Positions 15,984 to 56,353 of a stretch of DNA of 64,000 nt are shown piece after piece (positions within the stretch are counted from its first letter, which is position 1; each line of letters starts with the position of its first letter). Source of the DNA: Deltaproteobacteria bacterium HGW-Deltaproteobacteria-14. GTDB taxonomy: Bacteria; Myxococcota_A; UBA9042; PHBI01. Below the pieces are notes generated by a model that searched no databases, had not been told where the DNA came from, and saw only the letters and a list, made by a program, of their open reading frames with translations. The position numbers and the translations under genes are program-made. The stretch spans positions 4,169 to 68,168 of the forward strand of contig PHBI01000012.1 in NCBI GenBank assembly GCA_002841945.1, given 5' to 3'.

Positions 15984-18686
15984 CTACTCCACAGCTGGGA
16001 TCAAGACCGGGCCGACGTCATCCATGATGAGCGGGTCGGTCGCGTCGCCGCCTCCCATCCCGTAGGGGCCGCCGTCGGGCGAGAGCGGGCGGTAGATGTT
16101 GTCGATGCCGTCGAAGTCCCAGGTGGTCGCGTAGACGCTGACCCCCTCCCAGGTGTCGAGGGCGAAGCGGGCGCCGTCGTACTCGAAGGTGATGGTGTTG
16201 GTCGGCAGATCGACGGTGACCGCGGGGCGCCCGGGGACGCCGCCGCCCCAGGCGGTCTCGGAGGCGCCGGTGATGTTGTAGACCGTGTTCGACCAGCCGA
16301 AGATGAAGTGCGTGAAGTCCCAGGCGAAGCCCTCGGGGGCGGTGCCGTTGATCTTGGGCAGCAGCGTCAGGCCGTCGCGTCCCGGGACATCGAGGTAGAT
16401 CGTGAAGGCGACGTGATCGAAGCCGTTCGATGGGTTCCAGGTGGTGCTCGTCGCGGCCATCGTGAAGCGCAGGCGCAGGGTGGCGCCGCCGGCCTCGATG
16501 ACGAGGCGCGTGACGTCCATGGTGGCGTCGCCCGCGAAGGACGCGTCCTGGGGGTAGGTGTAGGTGCCCGTCGGGCCGTTGTCGTCGTCGAGCGGGTCCT
16601 CGATGGTCAGGATCTGCCCGTCGAAGACGGTCGAGGACGTGAAGGCGTAGCGCGGTGACGCCACGCCGGCGGCCTGGGCGTAGAAGGACACCGTGTGGGG
16701 CGTGTCGCCGTATGGGAAGGAGTCGATCGGGAGGCTCGCGGTGAAGGTGCCGTCCGTGGCGACGACCACGGGGGTCGGCGCGACGAGCTTGTCGTCGATC
16801 ACCATGACGAGCGCAGTGTCGGCGGGGGTCACGCTGCCGGTGACGTCGGTGTTCGCGGTGAACGTCTCGCCGGCGATGGGCGTGTCGACGGTGATGGCGA
16901 CCTCTCCCGGGCCGATCGTGTCCACCTCGTCGGTCGCGAGCAGGACGATGGAGGCGCGCGCCGGCAGCTCGGTCAGCAGGCGCCCGCCGAGGCCGACCCG
17001 CGTCACCGGCTCGTCGACGCCGACCTTCACGATGGCGTCGAGGTGCGTGCCCGCGGCGACGCCGGTCGCCAGGTCGTTGACGAGGATCGGGTGCTCCGAG
17101 GTGTTCATCAGGACGATGGCGGCGTCGGCGTCCGTCGCGCGGCGGAAGGCGAAGACGCCAGGGCCGAAGGGGGCGTCCTGGAGCACGGTGAGGTCGCCGC
17201 GGGTCAGCACTGGGTGGCCCGTGCGGGCGGCGACGAGGGCCTCGAGGAAGGTGTAGGGGGCGCTCGTGGTGTCGAAGTGGTCCACGTCGCCAGCGCCCCA
17301 GCCGTCCGCGAACAGCGACGCTCGGGTCTCGGTGAATGCCTGCTCGGTGCCCTGGTAGATGACCGGGATCCCGGGGATGGTCATCAGCAGCACCAGGGCC
17401 TGGCGGAAGGCCGGCTCGCTGGCGCCGGCGAGGAAGCGCTGGACGTCGTGGTTGTCGATGAAGTTCGGGGTCAGCCCAGGCTCGGGGAAGCGGCTCGGGT
17501 CGTTGGCGAGCCCGAGGCGGTAGCTGAGCTGGGCCGTCGGGTCGCCGCCGCCGATGACGCGCTTGATCTCCTCGTAGAGCGGGAAGGCGAGGACCGCGCC
17601 GAGCTCGGGGGCGGCGGGGGTGCCGAGGTAGCTCGCGCACTTCCGCTCGCCGGCGTCGTCGAAGGGGTCGGAGACCTCGTAGACCTCGCCGAAGGTCAGG
17701 AGGTGGTCACGACCGGTGGCGGCGGCGACCGCGTTCATTCCCGGGGTCGTCGCGTCGGTCCCGTGCAGGAAGTCGTTCCAGAAGGCGTGGTCGACGAACT
17801 TGACGGTGTCGATGCGGAAGCCGTCCACGCCGACCGCCTCGATCCAGTAGCCGTAGCTGTCCCGGAGCGCCTCGCGCACGACGGGGTTGTCGGTGTTCAG
17901 GTCGTCGAGATCGCTGATCTCCCAGGTCTTCTCCTGCACCGGGTCGGTGAAGTCGCCGATGGTCGGGGTCCAGTGGTAGATGGCCGCGGCGAAGTCGGCG
18001 GGGTCGGTCGCGTCGTTCTGGTCGAAGGGCGGCTGGGTCGGGGCGGCGCTCGGCAGCGAGCCGGTGTTCTTGGTGAAGCCGGCGGTCGGATCCTCGGGGT
18101 CGTAGGTGCCGGTCCAGGTGAAGAAGTTCCCGGTGTGATTCGGCACGATGTCTTGGATGAGATACATGCCGCGGCGGTGCAGCGCGTCCGACAGCGCCTG
18201 GTACGTGGCGAGGGTGCCGTAGTGCTCGTCCACGGCCTTGAAGTCGCGGCCCCAGTAGCCGTGGTAGCCGCTGAACTGGGCGAGCGGGTCCCACCACTGG
18301 TTGGCGACGGGGGGCGTGATCCAGACGGCGGTGGCGCCGAGGCCCTGGATGTAGTCGAGGTGATCGATGACGCCTTGCAGATCGCCGCCGCTATAGTGGG
18401 CGTTCGAGGTCGGGTCGTACTCGCCCGCGCCCTGGTCGTCGTTGCTCGGATCGCCGTCGGCGAAGCGGTCGAGCATGACGAAGTAGATGACCTGGTCGCG
18501 CCACTGAGGCGACGGGACGTGGAGCAGCGGCCCGGCGTCGACGGTGTCCTCCGCGGTGTCCGCGGTGTCCGCGGTGTCCGCGGTGTCCGCGGTGTCGGCG
18601 ACGGCCGTGTCGGTGGCGGGCTTGGTGTCCCCGCCGCAGGCCGCGACGAGAGTGAGGGTGGTGAGCCAAGTGGTCACTGCGCGCAT
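15984..18686 (-). CDS. GH13 alpha-amylase-family lipoprotein with a C-terminal glucodextranase-C-like domain.
   Basis: 900 aa. Lipobox LVAACGGD followed by a DTADTADTADTADTAE linker. GH13 regions DQVIYFVMLDRFADGDPSNDD, GYHGYWGRDF and GVDGFRIDTVKF. C-terminal motif IEDPLDDDNGPTGTYTYPQD resembles the Glucodextran_C domain. RBS GGGGGAGG before the ATG. Confidence 0.9.
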   Translation of the reverse strand: MRAVTTWLTTLTLVAACGGDTKPATDTAVADTADTADTADTADTAEDTVDAGPLLHVPSPQWRDQVIYFVMLDRFADGDPSNDDQGAGEYDPTSNAHYSGGDLQGVIDHLDYIQGLGATAVWITPPVANQWWDPLAQFSGYHGYWGRDFKAVDEHYGTLATYQALSDALHRRGMYLIQDIVPNHTGNFFTWTGTYDPEDPTAGFTKNTGSLPSAAPTQPPFDQNDATDPADFAAAIYHWTPTIGDFTDPVQEKTWEISDLDDLNTDNPVVREALRDSYGYWIEAVGVDGFRIDTVKFVDHAFWNDFLHGTDATTPGMNAVAAATGRDHLLTFGEVYEVSDPFDDAGERKCASYLGTPAAPELGAVLAFPLYEEIKRVIGGGDPTAQLSYRLGLANDPSRFPEPGLTPNFIDNHDVQRFLAGASEPAFRQALVLLMTIPGIPVIYQGTEQAFTETRASLFADGWGAGDVDHFDTTSAPYTFLEALVAARTGHPVLTRGDLTVLQDAPFGPGVFAFRRATDADAAIVLMNTSEHPILVNDLATGVAAGTHLDAIVKVGVDEPVTRVGLGGRLLTELPARASIVLLATDEVDTIGPGEVAITVDTPIAGETFTANTDVTGSVTPADTALVMVIDDKLVAPTPVVVATDGTFTASLPIDSFPYGDTPHTVSFYAQAAGVASPRYAFTSSTVFDGQILTIEDPLDDDNGPTGTYTYPQDASFAGDATMDVTRLVIEAGGATLRLRFTMAATSTTWNPSNGFDHVAFTIYLDVPGRDGLTLLPKINGTAPEGFAWDFTHFIFGWSNTVYNITGASETAWGGGVPGRPAVTVDLPTNTITFEYDGARFALDTWEGVSVYATTWDFDGIDNIYRPLSPDGGPYGMGGGDATDPLIMDDVGPVLIPAVE
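18541..18585 (-). repeat. Coding microsatellite of four 9-bp tandem units (GCGGTGTCC) encoding (DTA)n in the linker of the alpha-amylase lipoprotein.
   Basis: gcggtgtcc repeated four times, then a degenerate fifth copy (gcggtgtcg). On the minus strand it translates to DTADTADTADTA. Confidence 0.8.
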
Positions 18687-18739: not shown

Positions 18740-19957
18740 CTACAGCTCTTGAACGGTCGCCGTCGGCTGCTCGCCTCGCAGGCGGGCGCGGAGGTCCGCG
18801 AGGGCGACCTCGTGGCCGACGTCACGGTGGGCGGCCTCCGACATGTACCATTTGTGCTCGAGGAGCTGGCAGTAGAGCTCGGCGGGCTCGTCGCGGGCGG
18901 CGTCGTCGCGGAGGGCGGCGACGGTGGGGGAGAAGCGGGTCTCGAGCCAGCGGTAGGCGGCGGCGCCGAGGCTGACGCTGCGATCCTTGGCGCCGGCGAT
19001 GGTGGCTCGGATCTGCTGGATCTCGTTGACCATCTGCTGAGCCTGGAGCTCCTGGACCTCGAGGCCGGTGAGCGAGTGGAGCAGGCGCCTGTTGAAGCTG
19101 CGGTCGGTGACCACGACCCGCAGACGGAGCCGTTGGCGATCGCTCGCGGAGCGGGTCAGGGCGACCTCGCCGACGCTGAACCCCAGGGCGTTCAGCGCCC
19201 GGACCCGCTCGGTGATGCGGTAGTGCTCCTCGGGGCCGAGCTCGTCGATGCGGCTGACCTCGTGCCACAGGCCGTCGTAGCGACGGCGGATGTCGGCGGC
19301 TAGCTCGAGGGCTGGGTAGTCCTCGGGCAGCGCCCCCATGGCGACCAGGTCGAGCAGACCGCCGGCGACGTTCTCCTCCATGAGATCGAGGTCCGCGTCG
19401 CGGGTGGTGGCGTCGAGGGTGTCGCGGATGAGCGACGTCTCCGCGTCGACGAGGACCGCCTGCAGCGTCCCGGCGTCGCGGAGAAAGAGCGTGTTGAAGA
19501 GCGAGCAGTCGCCCCAGTAGACCCCGGCGAGGTGGAGCTGCACGAGGAGGCCGGCCATCGCGTCGAGGAGGTGATCGCGGTAGCGGCTGAGCGAGCTCTG
19601 CAGAAAGAGCGAGTGGTAGGGCAGGGAGTAGCTCAGGTAGCGGGTGACGAGCACGCTGCCGTCGCCTTCGTCGGTGGTCACGGTGACGTGGCCGACCGGC
19701 GCCACGACCGGGAGCTGGCGCTCCTCCATCTCGCGCAGGAGCTGGAATTCGTGCTCGGCCTGACCCGGGGGCATGGCCTTGAGCGCGTAGGCGCGGCCGT
19801 CGTAGTCGACGAAGACGACCGGGTGGCGGGCCTCGCCGCGGGGCAGGTCCTCGACGCGTGCGCACTCGCCCGCCCACGCGCCCAGCGGCAGGTGCCAGGG
19901 GAGGTCGAGGAAGTCGGGGTGACCGGGGCGGAGGTGTGAAGACTGGAGGCCGTTCAT
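18740..19957 (-). CDS. Protein-kinase-like-fold protein of the DUF4032/Kdo-RIO-like atypical kinase type.
   Basis: The long track ORF is trimmed to ATG 19957 (MNGLQSS...). Beta-strand with Lys VVFVDYDGRAYALK. Catalytic-loop-like HLAGVYWGDCSLFN (D-x4-N). The motif VLVDAETS is DFG-like. Confidence 0.65.
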   Translation of the reverse strand: MNGLQSSHLRPGHPDFLDLPWHLPLGAWAGECARVEDLPRGEARHPVVFVDYDGRAYALKAMPPGQAEHEFQLLREMEERQLPVVAPVGHVTVTTDEGDGSVLVTRYLSYSLPYHSLFLQSSLSRYRDHLLDAMAGLLVQLHLAGVYWGDCSLFNTLFLRDAGTLQAVLVDAETSLIRDTLDATTRDADLDLMEENVAGGLLDLVAMGALPEDYPALELAADIRRRYDGLWHEVSRIDELGPEEHYRITERVRALNALGFSVGEVALTRSASDRQRLRLRVVVTDRSFNRRLLHSLTGLEVQELQAQQMVNEIQQIRATIAGAKDRSVSLGAAAYRWLETRFSPTVAALRDDAARDEPAELYCQLLEHKWYMSEAAHRDVGHEVALADLRARLRGEQPTATVQEL

Positions 19958-19965
19958 GGCGGCAA

Positions 19966-19989
19966 GAGTAACTCCGAACCGAGTTACTC
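19966..19989. promoter_or_regulatory. Palindromic candidate operator GAGTAACTC-N6-GAGTTACTC immediately upstream of the kinase-like gene.
   Basis: Perfect 9-bp inverted repeat with a 6-bp spacer, 9-32 nt upstream of ATG 19957. It has the same GTAACT-N8-AGTTAC architecture as the site at 56332..56353. Confidence 0.45.
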
Positions 19990-20126
19990 CAAGCGGCGTC
20001 TTCGTGACGCCTCGCGGGCGCCCCAAAGACAAAGGGCCGGCACTGGAGTGTGCCGGCCCTCTGTGAGGCTCCGAGGAGCCGCTGCGGACTCCGGTCCGCG
20101 CCCTGCCGTTTCAGGTCAGCGGCGCG

Positions 20127-20163: not shown

Positions 20164-21939
20164 CTAGGGCGCGGTGATGAACGTGTTCTTGTCACCGTCG
20201 GTCTGGGACTCGACGGTCACGGAGGCCCAATCACCGGCGGCCGGCTTGACGTAGGCGGCGACGCCGGTGGCGTCCGCGGCCCCGTCGGCCTTGTACTCGA
20301 CGGCGTCGAGCACGAACACGAACTGGGGCTGCTGGCCGCTGGACAGCAGGCCGTCGTGCTTGCCGGTGTTCTCCGACAGCACGAAGGTCCAGATGCCGTC
20401 GGCGGCCGTCACGTCGCCCTTGGTGCCGTCATCGGTCATGGTGACCTCGCCCCAGGCCCACGCGCTGCCCTTGACCTTGAAGCTCGTGCTGCCCGCGAAC
20501 AGCGACGAGACGTTCGCCGCGTCGATGGTCAGGCGCATGTCGATCTCGCCAAAGGCCCCGATGGTCAGGCCCTGGGCGTCGATCGCGGTGGTGGCGCCCG
20601 CCGTGACCGTGAAGGCGCCGTTGCCGCCAACCCAGATCCAGTCGCCCGCCGCCGGGGCGACGTAGTTGCGCACGAGGCCGTAGCCGAACTCCTGCTCGGC
20701 CGCGTTCGAGACCCACACCGTGACGCCCCAGATGTGGTCGCCAGCGACGGAGCCGGCCGGCTCGTGGCCGCCCGCGTCCCAGGCGCCGTCATCGTAGAGC
20801 GGGACGTACGGCCCACCCCACGAGTTGTCGAAGGCGAGGACGCGGGTGGTCTCGTCGTAGTTGAACGAGCCCTTCCACGCCATGGCGTCGCTGGCCTCGT
20901 AGGTCTGGTTAGCCGAGTCGTCGACCTTGAAGTTGACGGCGACGGTGTCGGCCGGCGGGACGAACGCCGCGGCGGCGACCTTCACGTAGGTGTTCTTGTC
21001 ACCGTCGGGGTAGTTCTGGATCGCGGCCGGCTGGAAGCCCGCGCCGGTGTTGAGGAAGGCGTTGACGCCGTCGGTCGGAGGCGCGCCGTCGACCTTGTAC
21101 TCGACGCCGTCGAGCACGAAGACGAAGGGCGCCTCGGCGCCGGAGACGAGGAGGCCCGTGTGCTTGGTCAGGTTCTCCGAGAGCACGAAGGTGTAGATCT
21201 CGTCGCCCGCGGTGTCGTCGCCCTTGGTGGCGTCGTCGGTCATCTCGACCTCGACCCAACCCCAGGCGCCGCCCTTGACCTTGACGGTGGTGTACGAGCC
21301 GGTGCCGAGGTCGAAGGCGCCGCCGAGGTTCGCGCCGCTGTCGCTGACGTCGATCGTGAGCTTGAGGTCGGTCGTGCCGAAGGCGGGGATGACGAGGCCG
21401 GTCGCGGTCACGGTGCCGGTCTCGCCGGCGGTGATCGTGACGCTGCCGTTGGTGCCCTGCCAGATCCACTGGCCGTCCGAGCCGTCCACGGAGCCGCTGA
21501 TGGCGCCGTAGCCGAACTCCTGGTCGGCCTCGGGGGTCGCGAAGAGGATGCCGCAGGTCCAGATGTGGTCCCCGGCGGTCGCGTCGCCGTGGGTGCCGTC
21601 ATCGTAGAGCATCGGGAAGGGGCCGCCCCAGCTGTTGTCGAACGCGACGATGTTGGTCGCCGCGTCGTAGGCGAAGGAGCCCTTCCAGGCGAGGCCGTCG
21701 GTCGCGTCGTAGGTGCCGTTGGCGCTGTCGTCGATGGTGAAGACGAGCGTGGCGTAGTCGCTCGTCACGTTCGTGTCGGTCTCGACGTTGGTGTCCGCGG
21801 AGGTGTCGCCACCGGTGTCGCTCGTGACGGTGTCGGTCGTCGACGTGTCAGTCGCGGGCTTCGGGTCGTCGCCACACGCTGCGAAGAGCGTCATGGCTCC
21901 CGCGGCGAGCAGCAGAGTGATGGAGTTGAAAAGACGCAT
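20164..21939 (-). CDS. Non-catalytic lipoprotein with two tandem CBM20-like (starch-binding-like) beta-sandwich modules.
   Basis: Start trimmed to ATG 21939 with RBS GGAGGA. Signal MRLFNSITLLLAAGAMTLFAACGDDPKPATDT (lipobox plus D/T linker). Internal duplication of about 250 aa: DDSANGTYDATDGLAWKGSFAYD...DDGTHGDATAGDHIWT repeats as DDSANQTYEASDAMAWKGSFNYD...AGSVAGDHIWG. No catalytic motifs. Confidence 0.8.
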   Translation of the reverse strand: MRLFNSITLLLAAGAMTLFAACGDDPKPATDTSTTDTVTSDTGGDTSADTNVETDTNVTSDYATLVFTIDDSANGTYDATDGLAWKGSFAYDAATNIVAFDNSWGGPFPMLYDDGTHGDATAGDHIWTCGILFATPEADQEFGYGAISGSVDGSDGQWIWQGTNGSVTITAGETGTVTATGLVIPAFGTTDLKLTIDVSDSGANLGGAFDLGTGSYTTVKVKGGAWGWVEVEMTDDATKGDDTAGDEIYTFVLSENLTKHTGLLVSGAEAPFVFVLDGVEYKVDGAPPTDGVNAFLNTGAGFQPAAIQNYPDGDKNTYVKVAAAAFVPPADTVAVNFKVDDSANQTYEASDAMAWKGSFNYDETTRVLAFDNSWGGPYVPLYDDGAWDAGGHEPAGSVAGDHIWGVTVWVSNAAEQEFGYGLVRNYVAPAAGDWIWVGGNGAFTVTAGATTAIDAQGLTIGAFGEIDMRLTIDAANVSSLFAGSTSFKVKGSAWAWGEVTMTDDGTKGDVTAADGIWTFVLSENTGKHDGLLSSGQQPQFVFVLDAVEYKADGAADATGVAAYVKPAAGDWASVTVESQTDGDKNTFITAP

Positions 21940-22260
21940 GGGTTGAAAATTCCTCCTCTCAGGGGGCGAGGCGGCTCGTCCGTCATACCGGGACGGGGCG
22001 ACGTGCCCCATCGTAACGTGACCTCCGGCTTGGTCGCGGGGACGACCACATCGCTGCCGGGATCGGGGCGCATTATTCGCGACGACAACGCTGGAATCAA
22101 GATTGCCGGGCCGATCCGCCCCCAAAGCGTGACGTAGCGGCGAGTCACGCCCGCGGCCGGGCCGTAACCTGCTGTTTCTAAAGCATAGCGAAAGGTGGTG
22201 CCGCGGGTCGCCGCGCGACCCATCGGGTGCGCTCGGGGGGGTGACGTCGCTCGCCGTGAC

Positions 22261-23303: not shown

Positions 23304-24824
23304 TCACTCGGGGCAGGGGATGGTCACCGGCGACGACGTGCCCGGGCTCGGGTAGCCGTCGAGGACGCAGTCCTTGTCGAAGTCGACCATGTTCTCGAGG
23401 GTGTCGTCGACGCAGGTCGTCTTGCGGCCGCCTTCGATCGCCGCCGCGATCTCGCTCGCCCACAGGACCGTGCCGCAGCCGCCCTTGTTGGGTGCCCGCA
23501 GGTTCGAGGCGTCCTTGTTGGTCGTCTCGTCGCCGTAGAAGTCGCGCCGCACGATCATGTGGTCGCCGTTGACGTCACGCAGCTCGAGGATGCGCTGGTT
23601 GCCCGGCCACTCCTCGGTGCCGGTCCAGAGGTGCCCCGGCGTCCCCCAGGTGTACTTGTAGGACACGCGCACCCACTTGTTGTCGGGCGCGCCCGCGTCG
23701 AACCACGGCAGCACGAGCGCGAAGGTCCAGATGTTGTCGCCGGCGACCTCGTCGCCGTTCTTGCCGTCGTCGAACATCGGGATCAGGTTCGGGCTCCAGT
23801 TGCCGAGGAGCTGGCTGGCGGCGTCGAAGACGTCGCTCTCGAGGCACGGCGCCGGGTCGCTGTCGCAGTTCGGCGTGGACTCGTGGAGAGACCCGACGAT
23901 GAACATCTGCTTCTCGGGCAGGTCCTCGGTCCACTTCCAGCGGTTGATGGTCGCGCAGTTGCGGTCGACGCCGCCGTCGTTGAAGTCGACCATGAAGACG
24001 ACGCGGATGGTGTCGGGGCTGTAGCAGACGTTGAACTCGAGGGCGCCGATGGCGGTCATGAGCGCGGCGTCGAAGGCGGCCGAGTCGCCGTCGGGGGTGC
24101 CGTCGTTGTCGTAGTCGACGGTCGCCGACAGCGCCGTGGCGTCGAGGTAGCTGGCGCCCGTGGCCGGGAAGGGGGCGAACGCCTCCTTGGTGGTGGCGCC
24201 GCTCGCCACGAGGCGCTCGACCATGGCGACGAAGGGGCCTACCCGCGCGTCGTCCGAGCCGATGAGGGTCTCGATCTCCTCGAGGGCGCTCACGAGCGCG
24301 CTCGGAGAGATGGCCCCGAGCGTGCTCGCCGGGTTCGCGTAGCGCTGCTTGGCGAGCAGCAGCAGGGTCGCCGCGGTCGAGCGGGCGCCGAGGTCGTCCA
24401 TGAACGGCACGGCGCGCGCGTTGCCGGCGTCGTCGGGGAGGTCGGTCCCGAGGGTCACGCTGATGCTCGCGTCGTAGACCGTCGCCTTCGCGGGGACCTG
24501 CGGGACGAGGCCGAGGACGTTGACCGAGCTGGAGCTCACCGACACGATGAGGTTCGTGTAGGCCTGCGCCGCCGGGAACTCGGTGGCGAAGGCGCCGCCG
24601 TCGCCGGTGGTGGTCGCCTGGTCCTCGAGCCGCGTGCCGGCCGGCCCGTAGAACTTGACCGACGCGTTCGCCGCGAGCGCCGTGGAGACGCCGCTGACCG
24701 TGTTGGTCCCTGCGTCGGGGGGCTGGGTGAAGTCGCTCGTGGTGAGCCCGCCCCACACCTGGGGATCGAGTCCGCACCCTGCAAGGAGCATCAGGCTCAT
24801 GCCGATCGCGTAGCGCTTCACCAC
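23304..24824 (-). CDS. Lipoprotein with a CBM20-like starch-binding domain and no recognisable catalytic motifs.
   Basis: Signal MVKRYAIGMSLMLLAGCG. CBM20-like LGNWSPNLIPMFDDGKNGDEVAGDNIWTFALVLP...VRVSYKYTWGTPGHLWTGTEEWPGNQRILE, which parallels the GH57 C-terminus. Its start overlaps the upstream gene end by 7 nt. Confidence 0.8.
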   Translation of the reverse strand: MVKRYAIGMSLMLLAGCGLDPQVWGGLTTSDFTQPPDAGTNTVSGVSTALAANASVKFYGPAGTRLEDQATTTGDGGAFATEFPAAQAYTNLIVSVSSSSVNVLGLVPQVPAKATVYDASISVTLGTDLPDDAGNARAVPFMDDLGARSTAATLLLLAKQRYANPASTLGAISPSALVSALEEIETLIGSDDARVGPFVAMVERLVASGATTKEAFAPFPATGASYLDATALSATVDYDNDGTPDGDSAAFDAALMTAIGALEFNVCYSPDTIRVVFMVDFNDGGVDRNCATINRWKWTEDLPEKQMFIVGSLHESTPNCDSDPAPCLESDVFDAASQLLGNWSPNLIPMFDDGKNGDEVAGDNIWTFALVLPWFDAGAPDNKWVRVSYKYTWGTPGHLWTGTEEWPGNQRILELRDVNGDHMIVRRDFYGDETTNKDASNLRAPNKGGCGTVLWASEIAAAIEGGRKTTCVDDTLENMVDFDKDCVLDGYPSPGTSSPVTIPCPE

Positions 24825-26734
24825 CCCACCTCCAGGCTCGCCTTCGACCGGATGACGTGGAAGAGCCGGTTGTCATCGCGCTCGCGCTGAGCGTCCTTGT
24901 ACATGTACTCGAGCTGATACTTCAGAGTGAAGCCGTCGAAGGTGTAGCTCATCGCCAACCAAGGCCGCACCTTGGTCGTCGTGTCGTCACCGTAGCCCTG
25001 CTCGATGGTCCCGCGGCGGTTGTCCTCCTGCCAGTAGTCGAACTGACCGCCGACGGTGAGGCTCAGCCCGTCGGCCGCCGGGTACGTCAGCCAGAGCCGG
25101 GTCATCGACATCAGGCCGAGGTAGTCGTCGGCGGCCGTGGTGTCGCTGCGGTCGTCCTTGTCCCAGATGAACTTGGTCTTGAGGCCGACGTCGAGGCCAT
25201 TGCCGAGGCGGGTGTGCCACAGGCCCTTGAGCACGGCGATGGCGCTCATGCGGTCCTGGTTCTTGCGAAAGACGCTGCGCGGGTCGCGTCCGCGGTCGTA
25301 GACGTTGGCGTAGTCGTAGAGGTCGGTGTCGGTGAAGCCGTCGGTGTGCAGGAAGTCGGGGTACTTCGTGTCGACGTCGCGGTTCTGGGCGTTCGTGTTG
25401 TAGGTCAGGAACGTCCCCTCGAGGCTCATCTCGATGTCCGATTGGTAGCCGAGGATGGCCGTCGCGCCGTGCCAGCCGATGATCGTCTCGTACCAGGCCT
25501 CGTCGAAGTCGACGAACTCGTTGGCGCTGTTGAGCGTCGGGATCTGCCCGCCCTCGACGAACCCGTCGGTCAAGAGCACGTCGGCCTCGCGGCGGGCGCC
25601 GAAGATGGTCTGGAAGTGCTGGCCGATGTTGAAGTACTCGAGCTGCAGGTTGACGTTGGGGGCGATGTCGTAGAGCTCGGCCCGGACGCGGGCGAAGGCG
25701 CCGAACATGCTCGGGTCGTACACCAGCGGGAAGACGCCGTTGTTGAGGAGCACGCCGTTGCCAGCCGCAGCGGTGTTGATGTTCTGGTAGCTCGCGCCGA
25801 CGAGCACGTTGAACGAGCCGCCGTCCCAGGTGTCGATCTGGGTCTCGAGGGTCCCGACGATGTTGGTGTAGCGGTCGGTCCAGTCGACCGCGCCGTTGCG
25901 CTCGCAGCCGGGGATGGCGTTGCCGAGCTCGTCGGTGCAGCTCGCGTTGTTGGAGCCCACGGCGTCGGGGTCGTTCAGGTCGATCTCGCTGTCGACCGTC
26001 GCGGTCCCGATCGCCGTGACCTTGATGCCGTCGTAGACGTCGCTCTCGAGCTTGAGGCCGTACGCCCAGTCCTGGGAGTAGAACGGGAGCCGGACGTTGG
26101 CGTCGCCAACGCCCGTCGACCAGTTCGGCCCGACCCACAGCTTGGGCAGCGCGATGATACCGGCGTGAAAGCGCAGGTAGTCCTCGTCGAAGGCGCCCTG
26201 CACGAAGATGCCCTTGCCGTTGTCGCGGTCGATGTAGCGGACCTTGCCGATGGTCCACTCGTTGAACATGCCGAGGTCGCTCGAGCCGACCAGCACGTTG
26301 TCGAGGAACGGGATGGGCAGCTGCGCCTGGATCCAGTACCCGCGCAGCTTCATGTACTGCGCCCGGTTCATGCCGAGGCTCTCGCCCGAGGTGTTCTCGG
26401 CGTCATACGAGATGTCGCCGTTCTCCCACCAGTCCTGCCAGAGCGCGCCGAAGCGGCTCTTGATGCGTACACCGGCCTGGACCTTGTCGCCGACGCGGCC
26501 CTTGATGTTGAGTTCGAACTCCGTGCCCACCCCGTTGTCGCCGGACATGTTGTCCGGCCAGAAGGGGTTGCCCAGCGAGAGCACCCCGGAGGTGTCGTTG
26601 TTGCGGTAGAGCCACTTGGTGTAGATCTTACCGTACAGCTCGAAGTTCTTCGTCTCCGCGTGGGCCAGGGTGGAGAACCCCAGGAGCCCGGCCGCTGGGA
26701 GCGCGAGGGCGAGGAAGAGGCGCGATGTACGCAT
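24818..26734 (-). CDS. Outer-membrane beta-barrel protein, a candidate alpha-glucan/maltodextrin porin.
   Basis: 638 aa. Signal peptide MRTSRLFLALALPAAGLLGFSTLAHA. Abundant amphipathic beta-strand patterns. C-terminal ...FHVIRSKASLEVGW ends in an aromatic residue. Lies 6 bp after 26741..27571 and overlaps 23304..24824. Confidence 0.8.
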   Translation of the reverse strand: MRTSRLFLALALPAAGLLGFSTLAHAETKNFELYGKIYTKWLYRNNDTSGVLSLGNPFWPDNMSGDNGVGTEFELNIKGRVGDKVQAGVRIKSRFGALWQDWWENGDISYDAENTSGESLGMNRAQYMKLRGYWIQAQLPIPFLDNVLVGSSDLGMFNEWTIGKVRYIDRDNGKGIFVQGAFDEDYLRFHAGIIALPKLWVGPNWSTGVGDANVRLPFYSQDWAYGLKLESDVYDGIKVTAIGTATVDSEIDLNDPDAVGSNNASCTDELGNAIPGCERNGAVDWTDRYTNIVGTLETQIDTWDGGSFNVLVGASYQNINTAAAGNGVLLNNGVFPLVYDPSMFGAFARVRAELYDIAPNVNLQLEYFNIGQHFQTIFGARREADVLLTDGFVEGGQIPTLNSANEFVDFDEAWYETIIGWHGATAILGYQSDIEMSLEGTFLTYNTNAQNRDVDTKYPDFLHTDGFTDTDLYDYANVYDRGRDPRSVFRKNQDRMSAIAVLKGLWHTRLGNGLDVGLKTKFIWDKDDRSDTTAADDYLGLMSMTRLWLTYPAADGLSLTVGGQFDYWQEDNRRGTIEQGYGDDTTTKVRPWLAMSYTFDGFTLKYQLEYMYKDAQRERDDNRLFHVIRSKASLEVGW

Positions 26735-26740
26735 GATGTG

Positions 26741-27571
26741 TCAGCCTTCGGGGTAGACCATCTGCAGGACGGCGCGGGTCCCGCTGCCGTCGGGGTTGCA
26801 CTTGAAGGTGCCGAGCATCTTGTGCTGAGCGTCCTTTTCGGACTTGTCGCCCTGGGCCTTGCCGGCGATGAGATCCATGACGTGCGGGTCGCAGTCGTAG
26901 TCGGAGCCGCCGCCGAAGCGGTGCTGGCCGCCGAACTCGTTGACCTTGCGGGTCAGGAGATCGGTCTTGTCGGGGAAGCCCTCGTTCGACTGCATCAGCA
27001 CCTGGAAGCCCCACTGCTTGGAGAGGTCGGCGCCGAGGTCCTTCTTGGCGAAGCGGGCGACGAGCTTGCGGCCGCGCACGCTCACCGTCGTCGGGATGAG
27101 GATGTCCTTCTTCATCGCCGCGGCCTTGGCGGAGACCTCGGCCTGCACCCGGGTGCGCCCCTGGGGGCTGATGACGAGCGCCTTGTCCCAGCGCTGGTCG
27201 TCGGCGAAGGTGACGTTGAAGCCGGGCAGCCCGTCCTTGTAGCCGCTGCCGGCCTTGTGGTCGGTGTCGATGTGGATGACGATCATCTGGAGCGAGAAGC
27301 CGTTGCCGTCCCAGGCCCGGGAGTCCCACGGGTCGTCGATCTTGGCCTTGACGGTGACCGAGACCTCGACGGTGTCGCCCTTGTCGGCGATCTCGACGTC
27401 GGTCAGGTCGAAGGAGCCGGGGGTGTACACGGCGTCGGTCGGGTAGGTGTACTGCCCGGGGCCGTCATCGTCGCCCTTGGGGTCCTCGAAAGAGATCGTC
27501 TCGCCAGCGAGCGCGAGCCCGCCGTACATGACCATGACCAGTGTCAGGGAACCGGTGATGAGCTTCTTCAC
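26741..27571 (-). CDS. Secreted protein with a glucodextranase-C-like (Glucodextran_C-like) domain.
   Basis: Signal MKKLITGSLTLVMVMYGGLALAGE. Motif EDPKGDDDGPGQYTYPTDAVYTPGSFDLTDVEI, which recurs in the 15984 amylase C-terminus and in the 22261 gene. First gene of a minus-strand operon. Confidence 0.75.
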   Translation of the reverse strand: MKKLITGSLTLVMVMYGGLALAGETISFEDPKGDDDGPGQYTYPTDAVYTPGSFDLTDVEIADKGDTVEVSVTVKAKIDDPWDSRAWDGNGFSLQMIVIHIDTDHKAGSGYKDGLPGFNVTFADDQRWDKALVISPQGRTRVQAEVSAKAAAMKKDILIPTTVSVRGRKLVARFAKKDLGADLSKQWGFQVLMQSNEGFPDKTDLLTRKVNEFGGQHRFGGGSDYDCDPHVMDLIAGKAQGDKSEKDAQHKMLGTFKCNPDGSGTRAVLQMVYPEG

Positions 27572-27659: not shown

Positions 27660-27745
27660 GGACGCGTTACCGTAACGCGGCCCTCTGCGAAACGCCACAG
27701 GAACGTGAATCATGCCTGCGTTACGCCGGGCTGTAACTCACGTTT
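27660..27745. promoter_or_regulatory. Divergent promoter region with GTTAC/GTAAC palindromes, candidate operator(s).
   Basis: GCGTTAC-C-GTAACGC (7-bp arms) near 27665-27680. A second pair GCGTTAC-gccgggct-GTAACTC at about 27715-27740. TCATGCGC is directly repeated twice. Lies between the divergent starts at 27571(-) and 27828(+). Confidence 0.4.
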
Positions 27746-27827
27746 CATGCGCGCTATCATGCGCCGCGGTGCCTGCGGGGGGACCCCGAGGGCCCGTGGC
27801 GTGAGCCAGAGACGCTGGGAGCGAGCG

Positions 27828-29636
<1,809 letters not shown>

Positions 29637-29694
29637 CGCGCGAGCTTGCGCGTCGCGGCCAGCGCTGCTCGAGAGGGCAGGGGAGGTCGACGAG

Positions 29695-32600
29695 ATGAAG
29701 AGCCCGAGCACCTGGATCCGCCTGGCCCTGGGGGCCACGCTGGCGTTTGCCGCCTGCGGCGACGACGCCAAGCCCGTGAGCGACACGAGCGCCGACACCG
29801 GCGCCGACACCGAGGGCGACGTGGTTGACGACGCGACGGACACGAGCGTCGTGGACACGAGCGAGGCCGACACGACGCCGGTGGCGACGCTCGGGGTCAT
29901 CCGGGCGTGGTCTCAGGACGGGAGCTGGGTGCGGGTGCGCTTCGCGACCGCGCCCGATCCCGAGACGGTCAACGTGAGCGCGTTCATGGTGGCGGCGCCG
30001 AACGACGCCGAGGCGACCATCACCGGCGTGACGCTCGACGGCGCGACCGCGACCGCGACCCTGGCCATCGACCCGCCGCTCGACGCGGCGACGCCGTACG
30101 AGGTGACCATCACCGGCGTGGCGGACGCGCAGGGTAATGGCCTGGCCGGCGGCAGCTGGGTCGGCGAGGTCAAGGCGACGGTCTACCTCAACCTGGTGTG
30201 GCACCAGCACCAGCCGTCCTATCTGGACCCCGGCAAGGACGAGCTGCAGGGGCCGTGGGTGCGCAAGCACGCCACCAAGGACTACTTCGACATGACGGCG
30301 ATGGTCGCCGGCTACCCGAAGGTCCACTTCAACGTGAACCTGACCTCGTCGCTCCTCAACCAGCTCGACCTCTACGTCGAGCGCCTCGCGCCGTATGTCA
30401 ATGTGGTTGACAATGCCGTCGACGAGGCCGGGTTTCTCGGGGCCTGGCGCGGCAACACCGACCCGTGGGTCGACCTCCTGCTCGACGACACGCCGGCCAT
30501 CGAGGCGCTGACCGACGTCGAGCGTGACCGCTTCTACGCCGGCGTGTGGTCGTGCAAGAGCATCGCCGAGCCGCTGCGCGCCTTCTTCCCAGAGTACGCG
30601 GCGCTCCTCGCCAAGGACAGCGCGACCTACACGCAGCAGGACCTGGCGCTGCTCAAGGTGTGGTTCGAGCTGGCGTGGATGGACCCGGGCTTCCTCGACG
30701 GCCCGGTAACGGTCTACGACGACGGCGCCGCCGTCGTCGTAGACCTGTCGGACGTCGTGACCAAGGGCAGCGACGGGACCTACACCCTCGCCGCCGGCCT
30801 CGACGACGTGGCGGCGCTCGAGGCGCTGGCCAACCGGCTCGTGGCCGAGAACTTCAAGATCATGAAGGGGGTCTTCGAGATCCATAGGCAGCTCGGCTGG
30901 ACCGGGACGAGCGGCCAGGTCGAGGTGCTGACGACGCCGTTCTTCCACCCCATCCTGCCGCTGCTCTTCGACACCGATCTGGCCGCCGAGGGTCAGCCCG
31001 CCGACACGCTGCCCGACCCGGCCTTCGCCTACCCGGGGGACGCCACGCTGCAGGTCGCGATGGCGGTCGAGTACTACACCCGCCGCTTCGGGCACGCGCC
31101 GCGCGGGATGTGGCCGTCGGAGGGCTCGGTCGCCGAGGAGGTCGTGCCGGCCTTCCGCGACAACGGCATCGACTGGATCGCGACCGACCGCCAGGTGCTC
31201 GAGAAGGGCAAGCCCGGCGCGAGCCACCTCCAGGCCTGGCACGTCGACTCCGACACCGTCGTCGGCGACGGTGGCGACACCAGCGACGACGTCATGATCG
31301 TCTTCCGCGACACCGACCTGTCCGACAAGGTCGGCTTCTTCTACCAGTCGAACCCGCCCGAGGAGAACGCCGCGGACTTCGTGGTCGAGGTCGAGAGCTC
31401 GGCGGGAGCGTGGGGTTCGCCGCGGCGCCTGCTGAGCGTCATCCTCGACGGCGAGAACGCGTGGGAGTGGTACACCAAAGACCACGACGCCACGCGGTTC
31501 CTCGCCGGGGCGTACGCGGGGCTCGAGGCGGCCTACGACGAGGGGTCGGTCATCACCGTGACCGGCAGCGAGTACATCGACGGCGACGCGGCGCGGGACG
31601 TCGCGGCGCACCCCATCGCGAGCCTGCCCGAGTACGAGGACCTGTGGCCGGGCTCGTGGATCGGCGGGCGCTTCGACACCTGGATCGGTGAGGTCGAGGA
31701 GAACCTCGGCTGGAACTACCTCAAGGTGGCGCGCGACGACATCGAGGCGGCCAAGGCCGTGCTGGTGCCGATCCTCGGGATGCCGGCGAGCTACCTCGAC
31801 GCGCCGGACGCGAGCGAGGCGGCGAAGCTGGCGTGGTGGCGGGCGTGGCGCGCGATGTTGAGCGCCGAGGGGTCGGACTGGTTCTGGTGGTACGGGTCGG
31901 ACCAGACCTCGGCCGGCGGCGACGACTCGCCGTTCGACGACATCTACCGCTCGCAGCTGCGGGCGATGTACCAGTTCCTCAACGAGGCGCTGACGTTGTC
32001 GGGGCAGGCGGAGGTCGATGTTCCGGCCTTCCCGCCGATCCTGCAGCCGGCGCCGGCGATCATGACCGGCCCGTTCAGCACCCTGCCGGTGCTCGACGGG
32101 CTGCTCACCCCCGGCGACAGCGAGTGGACCCCGCCGGGCGGGCTCTTCTACGACAACGACACCGCCGGGGCGATCGACGATCCGGACGACGACATCGGGC
32201 GCGTGTTCTACGGCTACCACCCCTTCCAGAGCGGTCGCTGGTACCTCGCGATCGAGCTCAAGGAGGACCTGTCGGCCAAGCTCGGGACCAACTATCAGCT
32301 GGTCGTCTACGCGAGCGCGCAGACGACCGACACCTCGGGCGGGACGCCGGTGGTGACGACGCTGCCGTTCAACACGACGACCGCCGAGGGCGAGACCATC
32401 GCGTTCCAGTCGGGCGGGCCGGCGCGGCGCGTCGCCATCGACTTCTCCGGGAGCGCGCCAGCGGTGACGCTGCAGAACGCCGACGGGAGCGGCGGCTGGG
32501 ACACGGTGGCGAACACGGTGCTCGTCGGCGGGCCGGCCGACGGCGGCGCGCTCATCGAGCTGAGGGTGCTCTTGACGGACCTCGGGATGAGCCTGGGCGA

Positions 32601-33132
32601 TCCGCTCGAGATGGCCATCGTCGCCATCGACGACGGCGTGGTGGTCGACACGGCGCCGAACCTCGGGACGCAGATCGTCTTCGCCGATCCGAGCAAGCTC
32701 GTGAACGTCATCCTCGAGGTCGACGCGACGGGGACGGACATCCCGCTGAGCACGTACTCGAGCATCCAGGACCCGCCGCCACCGGCCGGCACCGGCGTGG
32801 TGTCGATCGTGGGCAACCAGGAGGCCTTCGGCAACTGGTCGCCGAACATGGTCCCGATGAAGGACGACGGGGTAGCGCCCGATACGACCGCCGGAGACAA
32901 CGTCTGGACCATCGCCTTCGACTTCGTGCCGGGGACGGACCTCCAGTATAAGTACACCTGCGGCCACGAGGGCGAGAGCTGGGGCGGCACCGAGGAGTAC
33001 CCGCTGACCAACCGCGGCTACCCGGTCCCCGCGAGCGGCGTCCACCGCGTGCGCGTCCACGACGTCTTCGCCGACCGGCCCGAGCCGTCGGGCAGCGTGG
33101 CGCCGAGCACGGTCGTGACCATCGAGGAGTAG
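29695..33132 (+). CDS. GH57-family glycoside hydrolase lipoprotein (alpha-amylase / amylopullulanase / 4-alpha-glucanotransferase type) with a C-terminal CBM20-like starch-binding domain.
   Basis: Lipobox LAFAACGDDAKP plus a D/T-rich linker. GH57 N-terminal signature VYLNLVWHQHQPSY. 1145 aa. C-terminus FGNWSPNMVPMKDDG...AGDNVWTIAFDFVPGTDLQYKYTCGHEGESWGGTEEYPLTNRGYPVPASG follows the CBM20 layout. Confidence 0.9.
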   Translation: MKSPSTWIRLALGATLAFAACGDDAKPVSDTSADTGADTEGDVVDDATDTSVVDTSEADTTPVATLGVIRAWSQDGSWVRVRFATAPDPETVNVSAFMVAAPNDAEATITGVTLDGATATATLAIDPPLDAATPYEVTITGVADAQGNGLAGGSWVGEVKATVYLNLVWHQHQPSYLDPGKDELQGPWVRKHATKDYFDMTAMVAGYPKVHFNVNLTSSLLNQLDLYVERLAPYVNVVDNAVDEAGFLGAWRGNTDPWVDLLLDDTPAIEALTDVERDRFYAGVWSCKSIAEPLRAFFPEYAALLAKDSATYTQQDLALLKVWFELAWMDPGFLDGPVTVYDDGAAVVVDLSDVVTKGSDGTYTLAAGLDDVAALEALANRLVAENFKIMKGVFEIHRQLGWTGTSGQVEVLTTPFFHPILPLLFDTDLAAEGQPADTLPDPAFAYPGDATLQVAMAVEYYTRRFGHAPRGMWPSEGSVAEEVVPAFRDNGIDWIATDRQVLEKGKPGASHLQAWHVDSDTVVGDGGDTSDDVMIVFRDTDLSDKVGFFYQSNPPEENAADFVVEVESSAGAWGSPRRLLSVILDGENAWEWYTKDHDATRFLAGAYAGLEAAYDEGSVITVTGSEYIDGDAARDVAAHPIASLPEYEDLWPGSWIGGRFDTWIGEVEENLGWNYLKVARDDIEAAKAVLVPILGMPASYLDAPDASEAAKLAWWRAWRAMLSAEGSDWFWWYGSDQTSAGGDDSPFDDIYRSQLRAMYQFLNEALTLSGQAEVDVPAFPPILQPAPAIMTGPFSTLPVLDGLLTPGDSEWTPPGGLFYDNDTAGAIDDPDDDIGRVFYGYHPFQSGRWYLAIELKEDLSAKLGTNYQLVVYASAQTTDTSGGTPVVTTLPFNTTTAEGETIAFQSGGPARRVAIDFSGSAPAVTLQNADGSGGWDTVANTVLVGGPADGGALIELRVLLTDLGMSLGDPLEMAIVAIDDGVVVDTAPNLGTQIVFADPSKLVNVILEVDATGTDIPLSTYSSIQDPPPPAGTGVVSIVGNQEAFGNWSPNMVPMKDDGVAPDTTAGDNVWTIAFDFVPGTDLQYKYTCGHEGESWGGTEEYPLTNRGYPVPASGVHRVRVHDVFADRPEPSGSVAPSTVVTIEE

Positions 33133-49850: not shown

Positions 49851-50480
49851 TCAGTCGAGGTACAGGCCGCCGGTCGACTCGAGCCAGTCGGCGATCTCGT
49901 CGGCGGCCTGGGCGGGGTCGAGGTCGGAGACGTCGAGCTCGAGGTGGTCGAGCAGCGAGGCGCGGACGACATCGCGCAGGCGCTCCTGCTCGGCGATGAA
50001 GTAGCCGATGTCGTCGTACTGAGCCGGGTTGCCGCTGACCTTCAGGCGCTGCGTCCGGGCGGCCTCGAAGGTCTCGGGTCGGCGGGTCAGGAGCACGACG
50101 CGGAAGTTCAGGGCGCGCAGGCGCCGCTCGAGGTCGGTGAAGTCGTACTCGACGCCGTGGGTGTGGTGCTGGAACGCCTTCGCCGAGAGGTGGAAGCGGT
50201 CGATGATCCACGAGTAGTAGCGCTGCAGCTCGAAGAGCCGCGCCCAGGTGGCGTAGGCCTCCATCGCGCGGAACGCCTCGTCGGGCGCGAAGTTGATGAG
50301 CCCGCGCCCCCAGGGGTGGTTCGTGAAGCCACACCACTCGCCGCTGATGATCGGCGAGTGATAGCGGTACTTGCGCGGGCCCACGATCCGCGGGTGCTCG
50401 TTGAGCGCGAAGGCCGTGTCCGTCTTGAAGGTCAGGCGTGTGCCTTCGAGGATCACCTTCGGGACGAGCTTCCGACCCAT
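49851..50480 (-). CDS. Hypothetical cytoplasmic protein at the tail of the mal-like operon.
   Basis: 209-aa ORF with protein-like composition. Lies 4 bp downstream of the membrane-protein gene. Weak resemblance to sulfotransferase-like proteins, not supported by motifs. Confidence 0.55.
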   Translation of the reverse strand: MGRKLVPKVILEGTRLTFKTDTAFALNEHPRIVGPRKYRYHSPIISGEWCGFTNHPWGRGLINFAPDEAFRAMEAYATWARLFELQRYYSWIIDRFHLSAKAFQHHTHGVEYDFTDLERRLRALNFRVVLLTRRPETFEAARTQRLKVSGNPAQYDDIGYFIAEQERLRDVVRASLLDHLELDVSDLDPAQAADEIADWLESTGGLYLD

Positions 50481-50484
50481 GGCG

Positions 50485-51066
50485 TCAGCTCGCCGCCGCC
50501 GGTCGGGCCGGGGTCCAGCCCGACTCGCGGCGCAAGGTGTCGAAGGTCATGAGCTGCGCGACGTAGCCGACCGCGTAGGCGGCGACCACGAGGACGTCGA
50601 CGTGGCCCGCGATCATCGTCAGCAGCGCCAGCAGCGCGGCGCCACCCCACACGGCGGCGGTGACGACGTGGTGCCGCTCGCGCTCCTCGGTGCGGAGCAG
50701 GCCCCAGGCGCCGAACACGCCGGCGAGCAGGACCATGAACAGCAGGACGTCGACGGCGGTCGTCGCGGCGCTCGCGTCCCCGAAGTTGGGGCGGACCGAG
50801 GCGTAGATCCAGGTCGCCATGAGCGGCCCGAGGAGGACCGACCAGGCGCCGATGAGCGCGCGGAGCGAGCCGTCGGGGGCGGCGTGGTTGAGCACCACCC
50901 CGGCCGCGATGGGCAGCCCACACACCAAGATGATCGGCAGCGGGGCGGAGGGGCCGCTCCCGAGCGCGACCACGCCGAGGAAGAGGCCGTAGGCCGCGAG
51001 CGCGCCGAGCTGCCCCACGAGCAGCATGACGACCTCGGGGACGTTGCCCTGGAGTCGCGCCTTCAT
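50485..51066 (-). CDS. Integral membrane protein with 4-5 transmembrane helices. Hypothetical.
   Basis: 193 aa with multiple hydrophobic helices (LLVGQLGALAAYGLFLGVVALG, LPIILVCGLPIAAGVVL, VDVLLFMVLLAGVFGAWGLL, ...). Lies 21 bp after malG. Confidence 0.6.
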   Translation of the reverse strand: MKARLQGNVPEVVMLLVGQLGALAAYGLFLGVVALGSGPSAPLPIILVCGLPIAAGVVLNHAAPDGSLRALIGAWSVLLGPLMATWIYASVRPNFGDASAATTAVDVLLFMVLLAGVFGAWGLLRTEERERHHVVTAAVWGGAALLALLTMIAGHVDVLVVAAYAVGYVAQLMTFDTLRRESGWTPARPAAAS

Positions 51067-56135: not shown

Positions 56136-56331
56136 GACCGCGCCATCCTGACACAGTCCCCAGGGGCGGGGAAGGGGACCGGGGCGGAGATCACGGAGAT
56201 CTCGGCGGTTCAGCCAGCCCTACGGCGCAAAGTGTGCGCTGGTGCGGCTCACCGGCCGAACGCGCTGCGTCGCAATTCCACGACAATCAGGACCCACGGG
56301 GTCCGCTTTCCGCGCGGCCCGGGATCAGATT

Positions 56332-56353
56332 CGTAACTTCAATCTGAGTTACG
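56332..56353. promoter_or_regulatory. Palindromic candidate operator CGTAACT-TCAATCTG-AGTTACG about 200 bp upstream of malK.
   Basis: 7-bp inverted arms (GTAAC...GTTAC with 10-nt spacing), flanked by the interleaved CAGATT/AATCTG inverted repeat. Lies in a lower-GC stretch of the cotH-like/malK intergenic region. Confidence 0.45.

Follow-up and report, generated by a model that had tools for sequence, protein, structure and literature searches.

In Escherichia coli the boxes recognised by MalT are asymmetric decamers, GGGGAKGAGG, which occur as arrays of either direct or inverted copies, and in LacI/GalR regulons some operators are located far upstream or inside genes, with looping as in gal and lac. 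A TrmB-family factor represses where its site overlaps a promoter and activates from upstream, and it may use half-sites alone; in Halobacterium the TrmB motif is TACT-N7-8-GAGTA (PMC4158304). The locus described here resembles the MalT regulon in that a malK-type transporter and amylase-type genes are found under several promoter-upstream sites, but these sites bear no likeness to MalT boxes in sequence or symmetry. We found no description of their motif in the literature searched. A dyad operator that answers to a sugar-responsive regulator belongs to a textbook class of mechanism; the novelty is in the motif, in its lineage (uncultured Myxococcota) and in the set of genes that it links.

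The window (the whole 64,000-nucleotide stretch of DNA that was analysed) contains a cluster of about 40 kb, from ~16 to 56 kb (15984–56135), that Pfam assignments identify as one for alpha-glucan (starch/maltodextrin) utilisation. It encodes three GH13 amylases, a GH57 enzyme with CBM20, a pullulanase, malK-malE-malF-malG with a small membrane protein, and several lipoproteins that have either a glucodextranase C-terminal (SLH-like) module or no family assignment, the repeat lipoproteins at 20164–21939 and 23304–26740 being of the second kind. The cluster is reminiscent of a surface capture system of the PUL-like type, here in a myxobacterium.

Dyad sites and their conservation

A preliminary description of this DNA had reported two look-alike palindromes with the same half-sites and spacing, one before a kinase-like gene and one before malK. 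Both are present, at 19968–19987 (GTAACTCCGAACCGAGTTAC) and 56333–56352 (GTAACTTCAATCTGAGTTAC), and they are the sole matches to GTAAC-N10-GTTAC in the window when up to one mismatch is allowed. The broader pattern GTRAC-N10-GTYAC has three exact matches, all intergenic, namely S1 (19968), S2 (56333) and S3 (22129), and a fourth site of the same geometry, S4 (27705–27724), departs from it by one mismatch. The two sites on which a regulon had been proposed thus stand, but their number does not, as there are four. All four are intergenic and lie in promoter regions of alpha-glucan utilisation units, as follows.

S1, 19966..19989, minus strand: perfect 9-6-9 palindrome, GAGTAACTC-GGTTCG-GAGTTACTC on the gene strand, with a 20-bp core at 19968–19987; orthologues at L102 9971, L103 9971, L001 5962 and L104 112, at the same distance to the ATG
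S2, 56333..56352, minus strand: GTAACTCAGATTGAAGTTAC on the gene strand, 73 nt past the stop codon of a cotH-like gene; orthologues at L084 4939, L086 9784 and L088 1920, which are 198, 198 and 184 nt from the ATG
S3, 22129..22148, minus strand: GTGACTCGCCGCTACGTCAC on the gene strand, 28 nt upstream of a predicted TTGATT-17-AATAAT promoter, with its centre at about -73; orthologues at L102 7888 and L103 7619, and a degenerate copy at L001 3878
S4, 27705..27724, no strand assigned: GTGAATCATGCCTGCGTTAC, with one mismatch, ~53 bp from both of the divergent starts that are predicted here (near 27661 and 27767); the 20-mer recurs with a single change, at a spacer position, at L102 2312 and at L103 2092 / L093 3877

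The distance of S1 from the kinase-like gene had been given as 9 nt, and the 24-bp palindrome in fact ends 8 nt from the ATG (19957); S2, placed earlier at about 200 bp upstream of malK, is 197 nt from the malK ATG (56135).

A base composition of 70% GC had first suggested an actinobacterial origin, with known Streptomyces or Mycobacterium motifs, but MalK is 100% identical to a protein of Deltaproteobacteria bacterium HGW-Deltaproteobacteria-14 and the close relatives are all uncultured Myxococcota MAGs, so that this idea was dropped. The relatives in which the sites could be compared represent lineages B (L102, 93% DUF4032 identity), C (L103, L084, L085 and L093, 82–88%), D (L001 and L086, MAG SBGO01, 81–86%) and E (L104 and L088, 76–81%). 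With the window included, orthologous positions retain S1 in five lineages, S2 and S3 in four each, and S4 in three. Alignments of distinct lineages show that the half-sites are largely invariant (11 of 12 columns for S1, and 9 of 12 for both S2 and S3), against 14/104 (13%), 7/72 (10%) and 15/118 (13%) of the respective upstream-flank columns (Fisher p = 6e-8, 5e-6 and 9e-6). The spacers have four invariant columns of eight at S1, none of eight at S2 and four of eight at S3; variation is confined to the central four positions at S1 and extends throughout at S2. The preliminary description had held recurrence by chance to be unlikely, which shuffled sequences bear out moderately; the main ground for excluding chance is that the half-sites are conserved at fixed positions while spacers and flanks drift. 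Near-identical metagenome copies (L081–L083) are 100% identical in the intergenic region and uninformative. More distant DUF4032 loci (L002–L080) have no site upstream; the one exact GTRAC-N10-GTYAC match among them (L043 3695) is inside a kinase coding region and was set aside.

The consensus first proposed, GTAACTyC-N4-yGAGTTAC, proved over-strict, since 14–15 orthologous sites give G-T-R-A-C-(T/G)-C-N7-(R)-(G/T)-T-Y-A-C. Positions G1, A4, C5, C7, A19 and C20 are invariant in 17/17 aligned site sequences, and the half-site spacing is constant, with the GTRAC-N10-GTYAC geometry at all four window sites and all orthologues. Central positions 9–13 carry 0.0–0.8 bits, with no conserved CG. The most conserved 5-mers are 15 bp (about 1.4 helical turns) apart centre to centre, a spacing not usually seen in the targets of simple helix-turn-helix dimers.

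A position weight matrix built from the sites scores the real sites at 20–31 bits and one degenerate copy at 15.5 bits. Unrelated DUF4032 loci, 869 kb in all, score no higher than 15.9 bits, and although this test of specificity is partly circular, the matrix having been trained on the same sites, the gap is nonetheless wide. Matches in the window at 35859 (15.6 bits, inside a DUF4185 gene), 56107 (12.2 bits, malK codons 4–10), 40121 and 22256 are at background level and were rejected. No further match was seen in 17 kb of additional flank from the source contig, and no site is present at two other promoters of the cluster, those of the pullulanase (40.1 kb) and an amylase (48.2 kb).

Promoter context of the sites

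The surroundings of S1 include the following features.

19965..19970, minus strand: -10-like hexamer TACTCT, overlapping the proximal S1 half-site and exactly 7 nt before the ATG (19957)
19987..19992, minus strand: -35-like hexamer TTGGAG (TTGGCG in relatives), adjoining the distal S1 half-site and separated by 16 nt from the -10-like hexamer downstream
18740..19957, minus strand: kinase-like gene (Kdo/WaaP-like domain and DUF4032 by Pfam), the first gene of the unit under S1
15984–18686: GH13 amylase/Glucodextran_C gene, downstream of the kinase-like gene
20022..20058, minus strand: intrinsic terminator for the lipoprotein gene upstream, with a GC stem of 10 bp and a TTTGTCTTT tail (-34.3 kcal/mol, z = -5.9)

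The arrangement GCTTGG(A/C)G, 16 nt, TACT(C/G)T, 7 nt, ATG is fixed in five lineages, GCTTGG being invariant in all of them while the 7 nt vary in sequence, and there is no Shine-Dalgarno sequence. The fixed 7-nt distance from the -10-like hexamer to the ATG, together with the lack of a Shine-Dalgarno sequence, points to a leaderless transcript that would start at the A of the ATG. The order of the kinase-like and amylase genes is kept in L001, L102 and L104. The terminator separates the upstream lipoprotein gene from the S1 promoter; it was seen by folding and was overlooked by a scan for consensus promoters and terminators, which returned nothing at S1 or S2. Lineage C carries a tandem repeat (GGCGAAGGCGGAGGTGCT, ~4 copies, L103 9665–9760) and ~250 extra bases between terminator and promoter, with the promoter-operator block intact.

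More distant DUF4032 genes also have TANNNT 6–7 nt before the ATG. A TANNNT-like hexamer 6–9 nt before the ATG, with no Shine-Dalgarno sequence, is seen at DUF4032 genes of many Myxococcota (L002, L004, L018, L021 and L024) and at malK in the window, a pattern which suggests that leaderless mRNAs may be common for the DUF4032 genes of this phylum and for malK.

The predicted promoter downstream of S3 (-35 at 22100–22095, -10 at 22077–22072, start expected near 22065) belongs to the repeat lipoprotein gene at 20164–21939, and its TTGATT-17-AATAAT sequence is conserved in relatives. In lineage D the distance from S3 to this promoter is 11 bp shorter, corresponding to one helical turn, and the canonical right half of the site is degenerate (GCAAC). 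The same lineage has a second, overlapping dyad of reversed polarity (AGTCAC-N9-GTGACT, L001 3862–3882) that shares the GTGAC half.

S4 is flanked by a Glucodextran_C lipoprotein operon (26741–27571 onward, minus strand) and an amylase-GH57 operon (27828–33132, plus strand), with -10-like hexamers TATCAT at 27755–27760 and TACGGT at 27673–27668. As judged from the alignments this is the weakest case of the four, with conservation in three lineages only and a whole intergenic region that is well conserved. Four GTWAC pentamers at 27663–27737, including those of the perfect palindrome GCGTTACCGTAACGC, were considered as extra half-sites and rejected, as lineage C fails to keep three of them while conserving the DNA around them. 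The palindrome itself (GCGTTAC-C-GTAACGC, 27663–27677) is not kept in lineage C, where the sequence is GCGTCAAACCTAACGC, and it probably does no more than contain the -10-like TACGGT of the minus-strand operon.

S2 lies before the transporter operon, whose genes are assigned by Pfam and whose gene order is kept in L084–L088.

55014–56135, minus strand: malK
53642–55021, minus strand: malE-like binding protein gene
51948–53630, minus strand: malF
51088 to ~51951, minus strand: malG
50485–51066: first of two small conserved genes after malG, encoding a membrane protein
49851–50480: second small conserved gene (209 aa, no family assignment)
56145..56150, minus strand: -10-like CAGGAT after TGT, 9 nt before the ATG; it probably marks the malK core promoter, with a leaderless start predicted near 56135

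The small membrane protein after malG is polytopic and kept in all relatives, and is reminiscent of MusI, the extra component of the Corynebacterium maltose importer. The block before malK, CTGTG(T/A)CA..., is conserved in five lineages at an unvarying 9 nt from the ATG, and a Shine-Dalgarno sequence is lacking. S2 is about 200 bp upstream of this likely core promoter and so would not work simply by occluding it; looping, activation or action on another promoter that was not recognised here may be involved.

Two further elements were noticed in this region. An inverted repeat between S2 and malK, GGACC-N5-GGTCC (56290–56304), is preceded by a conserved TCTGATC (56323–56329) and has an invariant stem and a variable loop in five lineages. 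It folds at -10.5 kcal/mol, its only other copy in the window (5107) is in coding sequence, and it may serve as another protein site or form a short hairpin. Within malK, codons 5–11 (56105–56123) retain the rare A/T-ending codons CTA (Leu6) and AGA (Arg8) in five lineages of a genome with ~95% GC3, and read CTAnAnAGAGTYACGAAG, which resembles a lone right half-site at about +20. This block may be a proximal looping partner for S2, or may reflect selection for low structure at a leaderless 5' end.

The positions of the four sites relative to their predicted promoters differ widely (-20 for S1, -53 for S4, -73 for S3 and -207 for S2), and no single mode is evident.

Alternative explanations for the sites

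An alternative explanation is that the palindromes work as RNA or single-strand DNA hairpins, i.e. as 5'-leader stem-loops, attenuators or the 3' ends of upstream transcripts. Taken alone, S1 would also fit a hairpin, as it folds into a 10-bp stem (-14.7 kcal/mol, z = -5.7) that is maintained in five lineages with one G·U pair, and S2 is within the 3' region of the cotH-like gene. Compensatory changes are absent from the site family as a whole, however, and positions 3 and 18 occur in the combinations A/T (4), A/C (4), G/C (3), G/T (2) and G/A (1). The purine and pyrimidine positions of the two halves thus switch independently, which argues for a protein-DNA site and not a hairpin. Moreover, the 5-bp core has mismatches that are themselves conserved, at S2 in lineage C, at S3 in lineages C and D and at S4, the last of which shows no folding (z = +0.5). 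Rfam gives no match, whether by gathering or by E-value threshold, the 200-nt S2-malK leader yields no structure supported by RNAalifold, and upstream of S1 there is already a separate strong terminator. We regard an RNA or single-strand role as very unlikely.

The motif could also be read as a promoter for an ECF-type sigma factor, with GTRACTC as the -35 and GTYAC(G) as the -10 element. Such a reading would explain why the GTRACTC half is on the gene-distal side at S1, S2 and S3, and it would fit both the AAC that ECF -35 elements typically contain and the location of an ECF sigma/anti-sigma pair, itself preceded by GGTAACC, ~1 kb left of the window. An orientation shared by three sites of three, though, is reached by chance as often as 1 in 4 to 1 in 8. 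The geometry is also not that of the sigma-70 family, in whose promoters the -35 and -10 elements are ~21–23 bp apart centre to centre (16–18-nt spacer), against 15 bp for the conserved pentamers here. The symmetric R/Y degeneracy of the halves indicates a dyad, and separate -35/-10 pairs are available at S1 (conserved, 16-nt spacing) and at S3 (TTGATT-17-AATAAT), such that we consider a sigma-factor target very unlikely.

Coincidence would require that two similar AT-containing palindromes are each conserved through overlap with unrelated promoter elements. Part of S1 does coincide with the -10 hexamer, and the S4 intergenic region is conserved throughout. The counts for the chosen patterns exceed expectation: GTAAC-N10-GTTAC with up to one mismatch occurs twice in the window against a shuffle mean of 0.15, with 2 of 100 shuffles reaching two, and GTRAC-N10-GTYAC occurs three times against 0.14 expected, with 0 of 100 shuffles reaching three. 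These patterns were nevertheless picked after the sequence had been seen, and we corrected for this by counting any 6+6 inverted repeat that recurs at the same spacing. Such repeats are common, with 67 in the window compared to 36.6 per shuffle; all the others are GC-rich, and a recurrent repeat with at least three A/T per arm arises in only one of 100 shuffles, which is the family-wise figure. The four blocks are conserved independently with the same 20-bp geometry and the same invariant positions, the S4 20-mer is conserved while the neighbouring GTWAC pentamers at 27.6 kb are not, and unrelated loci contain no comparable matrix match. Coincidence is thus highly improbable.

A dispersed repeat family of the REP/BIME or MITE type, which the sites recall in being palindromic, intergenic and present in several copies, has a negligible probability, as flanks differ between copies and between lineages, as does much or all of the spacer at S1, S2 and S3, leaving ~12 shared positions, and as the copies are positionally orthologous in genomes at 76–88% protein identity and absent from the other intergenic regions of the window and from the extra flanks (64 + 17 kb). 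The objection anticipated in the preliminary description, that the motif might be a dispersed repeat or be randomly placed with respect to genes, is therefore not borne out.

A putative alpha-glucan regulon and its relation to known systems

With hairpins, sigma-factor promoters, coincidence and repeats weighed in this way, the sites are almost certainly operators of one dimeric transcription factor, as far as comparison of sequences can tell. The proposal that a single dimeric regulator controls both the kinase-like gene and the malK operon is supported by this comparison, through the orthologous sites, the independent variation of the half-sites and the rarity of the motif. More specifically, we think it likely that the dyads, at least four in number and of the form GTRAC(T/G)C-N7-(R)(G/T)TYAC, are the operators through which one dimeric (or higher-order) factor governs an alpha-glucan regulon, with repression by occlusion at S1, with activation, co-operativity or looping at S2, S3 and S4, and with the regulator gene elsewhere in the genome.

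The regulon would consist of the kinase-like/amylase unit (S1), the repeat lipoprotein gene (S3), the divergent Glucodextran_C lipoprotein and amylase-GH57 operons (S4), and malKEFG with two small genes (S2). S1, at about -30 to -11, would fill the spacer between the -35-like and -10-like hexamers and overlap the -10 element of the predicted leaderless promoter; because of this overlap with the core promoter a bound dimer would exclude RNA polymerase, and the factor would be a repressor there. Release would be brought about by a breakdown product of alpha-glucan, for example a maltodextrin, the inducer being suggested by gene content. At S3 (about -73), S4 (about -53 to both promoters) and S2 (about -207) the sites are upstream of the predicted core promoters, where activation, co-operative binding or looping would be expected.

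By comparative inference the motif would unite at least five transcription units and ~15 genes as one regulon, and membership would tie the DUF4032 kinase-like gene and the lipoproteins without family assignment to alpha-glucan use. The motif provides a testable handle on the control of starch harvesting in an uncultured groundwater/sediment myxobacterial lineage, and it can be used as a probe for the regulator in the MAGs.

The regulator had been said to be encoded outside the window, and Pfam scans of 38 window ORFs agree in showing no DNA-binding regulator. Gene tables list no regulator gene for the sites in the ~17 kb of extra flank (7 kb on the right in L105, 10 kb on the left in L108), and relaxed Pfam searches, applied to small ORFs of no assigned family from window, flanks and relatives alike, gave no helix-turn-helix sugar regulator. 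The sole regulator-type find in the flanks is the ECF sigma/anti-sigma (zf-HC2) pair at L108 8270–9725. This pair is immediately upstream of a Tricorn/PD40-like gene (window 72–2966), and a group II intron maturase domain (GIIM) is present in a fragment at L108 4611–5593.

The preliminary description had named LacI among the candidate families. LacI/GalR operators (MalR, MalI, CcpA cre) share with the present sites a dyad of 14–20 bp before mal or amylase genes, a dimeric repressor and the use of several operators per regulon. They have a conserved central CG and contiguous half-sites of 7–8 bp (~14–18 bp in all), however, whereas here the central 6–7 positions are nearly information-free; the lack of a conserved central CG makes a LacI-type regulator unlikely, and no LacI-family gene is present near the sites in the window and flanks.

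CRP/FNR sites (TGTGA-N6-TCACA, 22 bp) are likewise dyads, and a GTGA...TCAC core is present in the G-variant of the motif (S3, GTGAC-N10-GTCAC); the variable upstream positions are also compatible with activation. The GTGA and TCAC elements are 12 nt apart here, in contrast to 6 nt in CRP/FNR sites, and the A-variant GTAAC/GTTAC is preferred.

For the TrmB family there are differences and likenesses. The present sites are in a bacterium with sigma-70-type promoters, the outer GTRAC/GTYAC and not TACT/AGTA are most conserved, and no TrmB-family gene was located in the window or flanks. S1 and S2 contain ACT(C)-N6-8-(G)AGT with a different outer base, while S3 and S4 are without the GAGT half. 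The core of S1, AACT-N7-GAGTT, resembles the Halobacterium motif, a likeness that we take as a lead only. It is possible, if on balance unlikely, that the dyad is recognised by a kind of regulator that has yet to be connected with starch/maltodextrin control in bacteria, either a TrmB-like sugar sensor or a member of an uncharacterised family. Such a protein would be a dual repressor/activator acting from helically phased positions at -20, -53 and -73 and a distal one at -207, and in Myxococcota it would control a PUL-like system for alpha-glucan capture that is rich in lipoproteins and has leaderless promoters. At the malE promoter of the trehalose/maltose operon, archaeal TrmB likewise has a palindrome over the core promoter of a maltose/maltodextrin ABC transporter or glucan unit, and represses by blocking polymerase recruitment, as is predicted here for S1.
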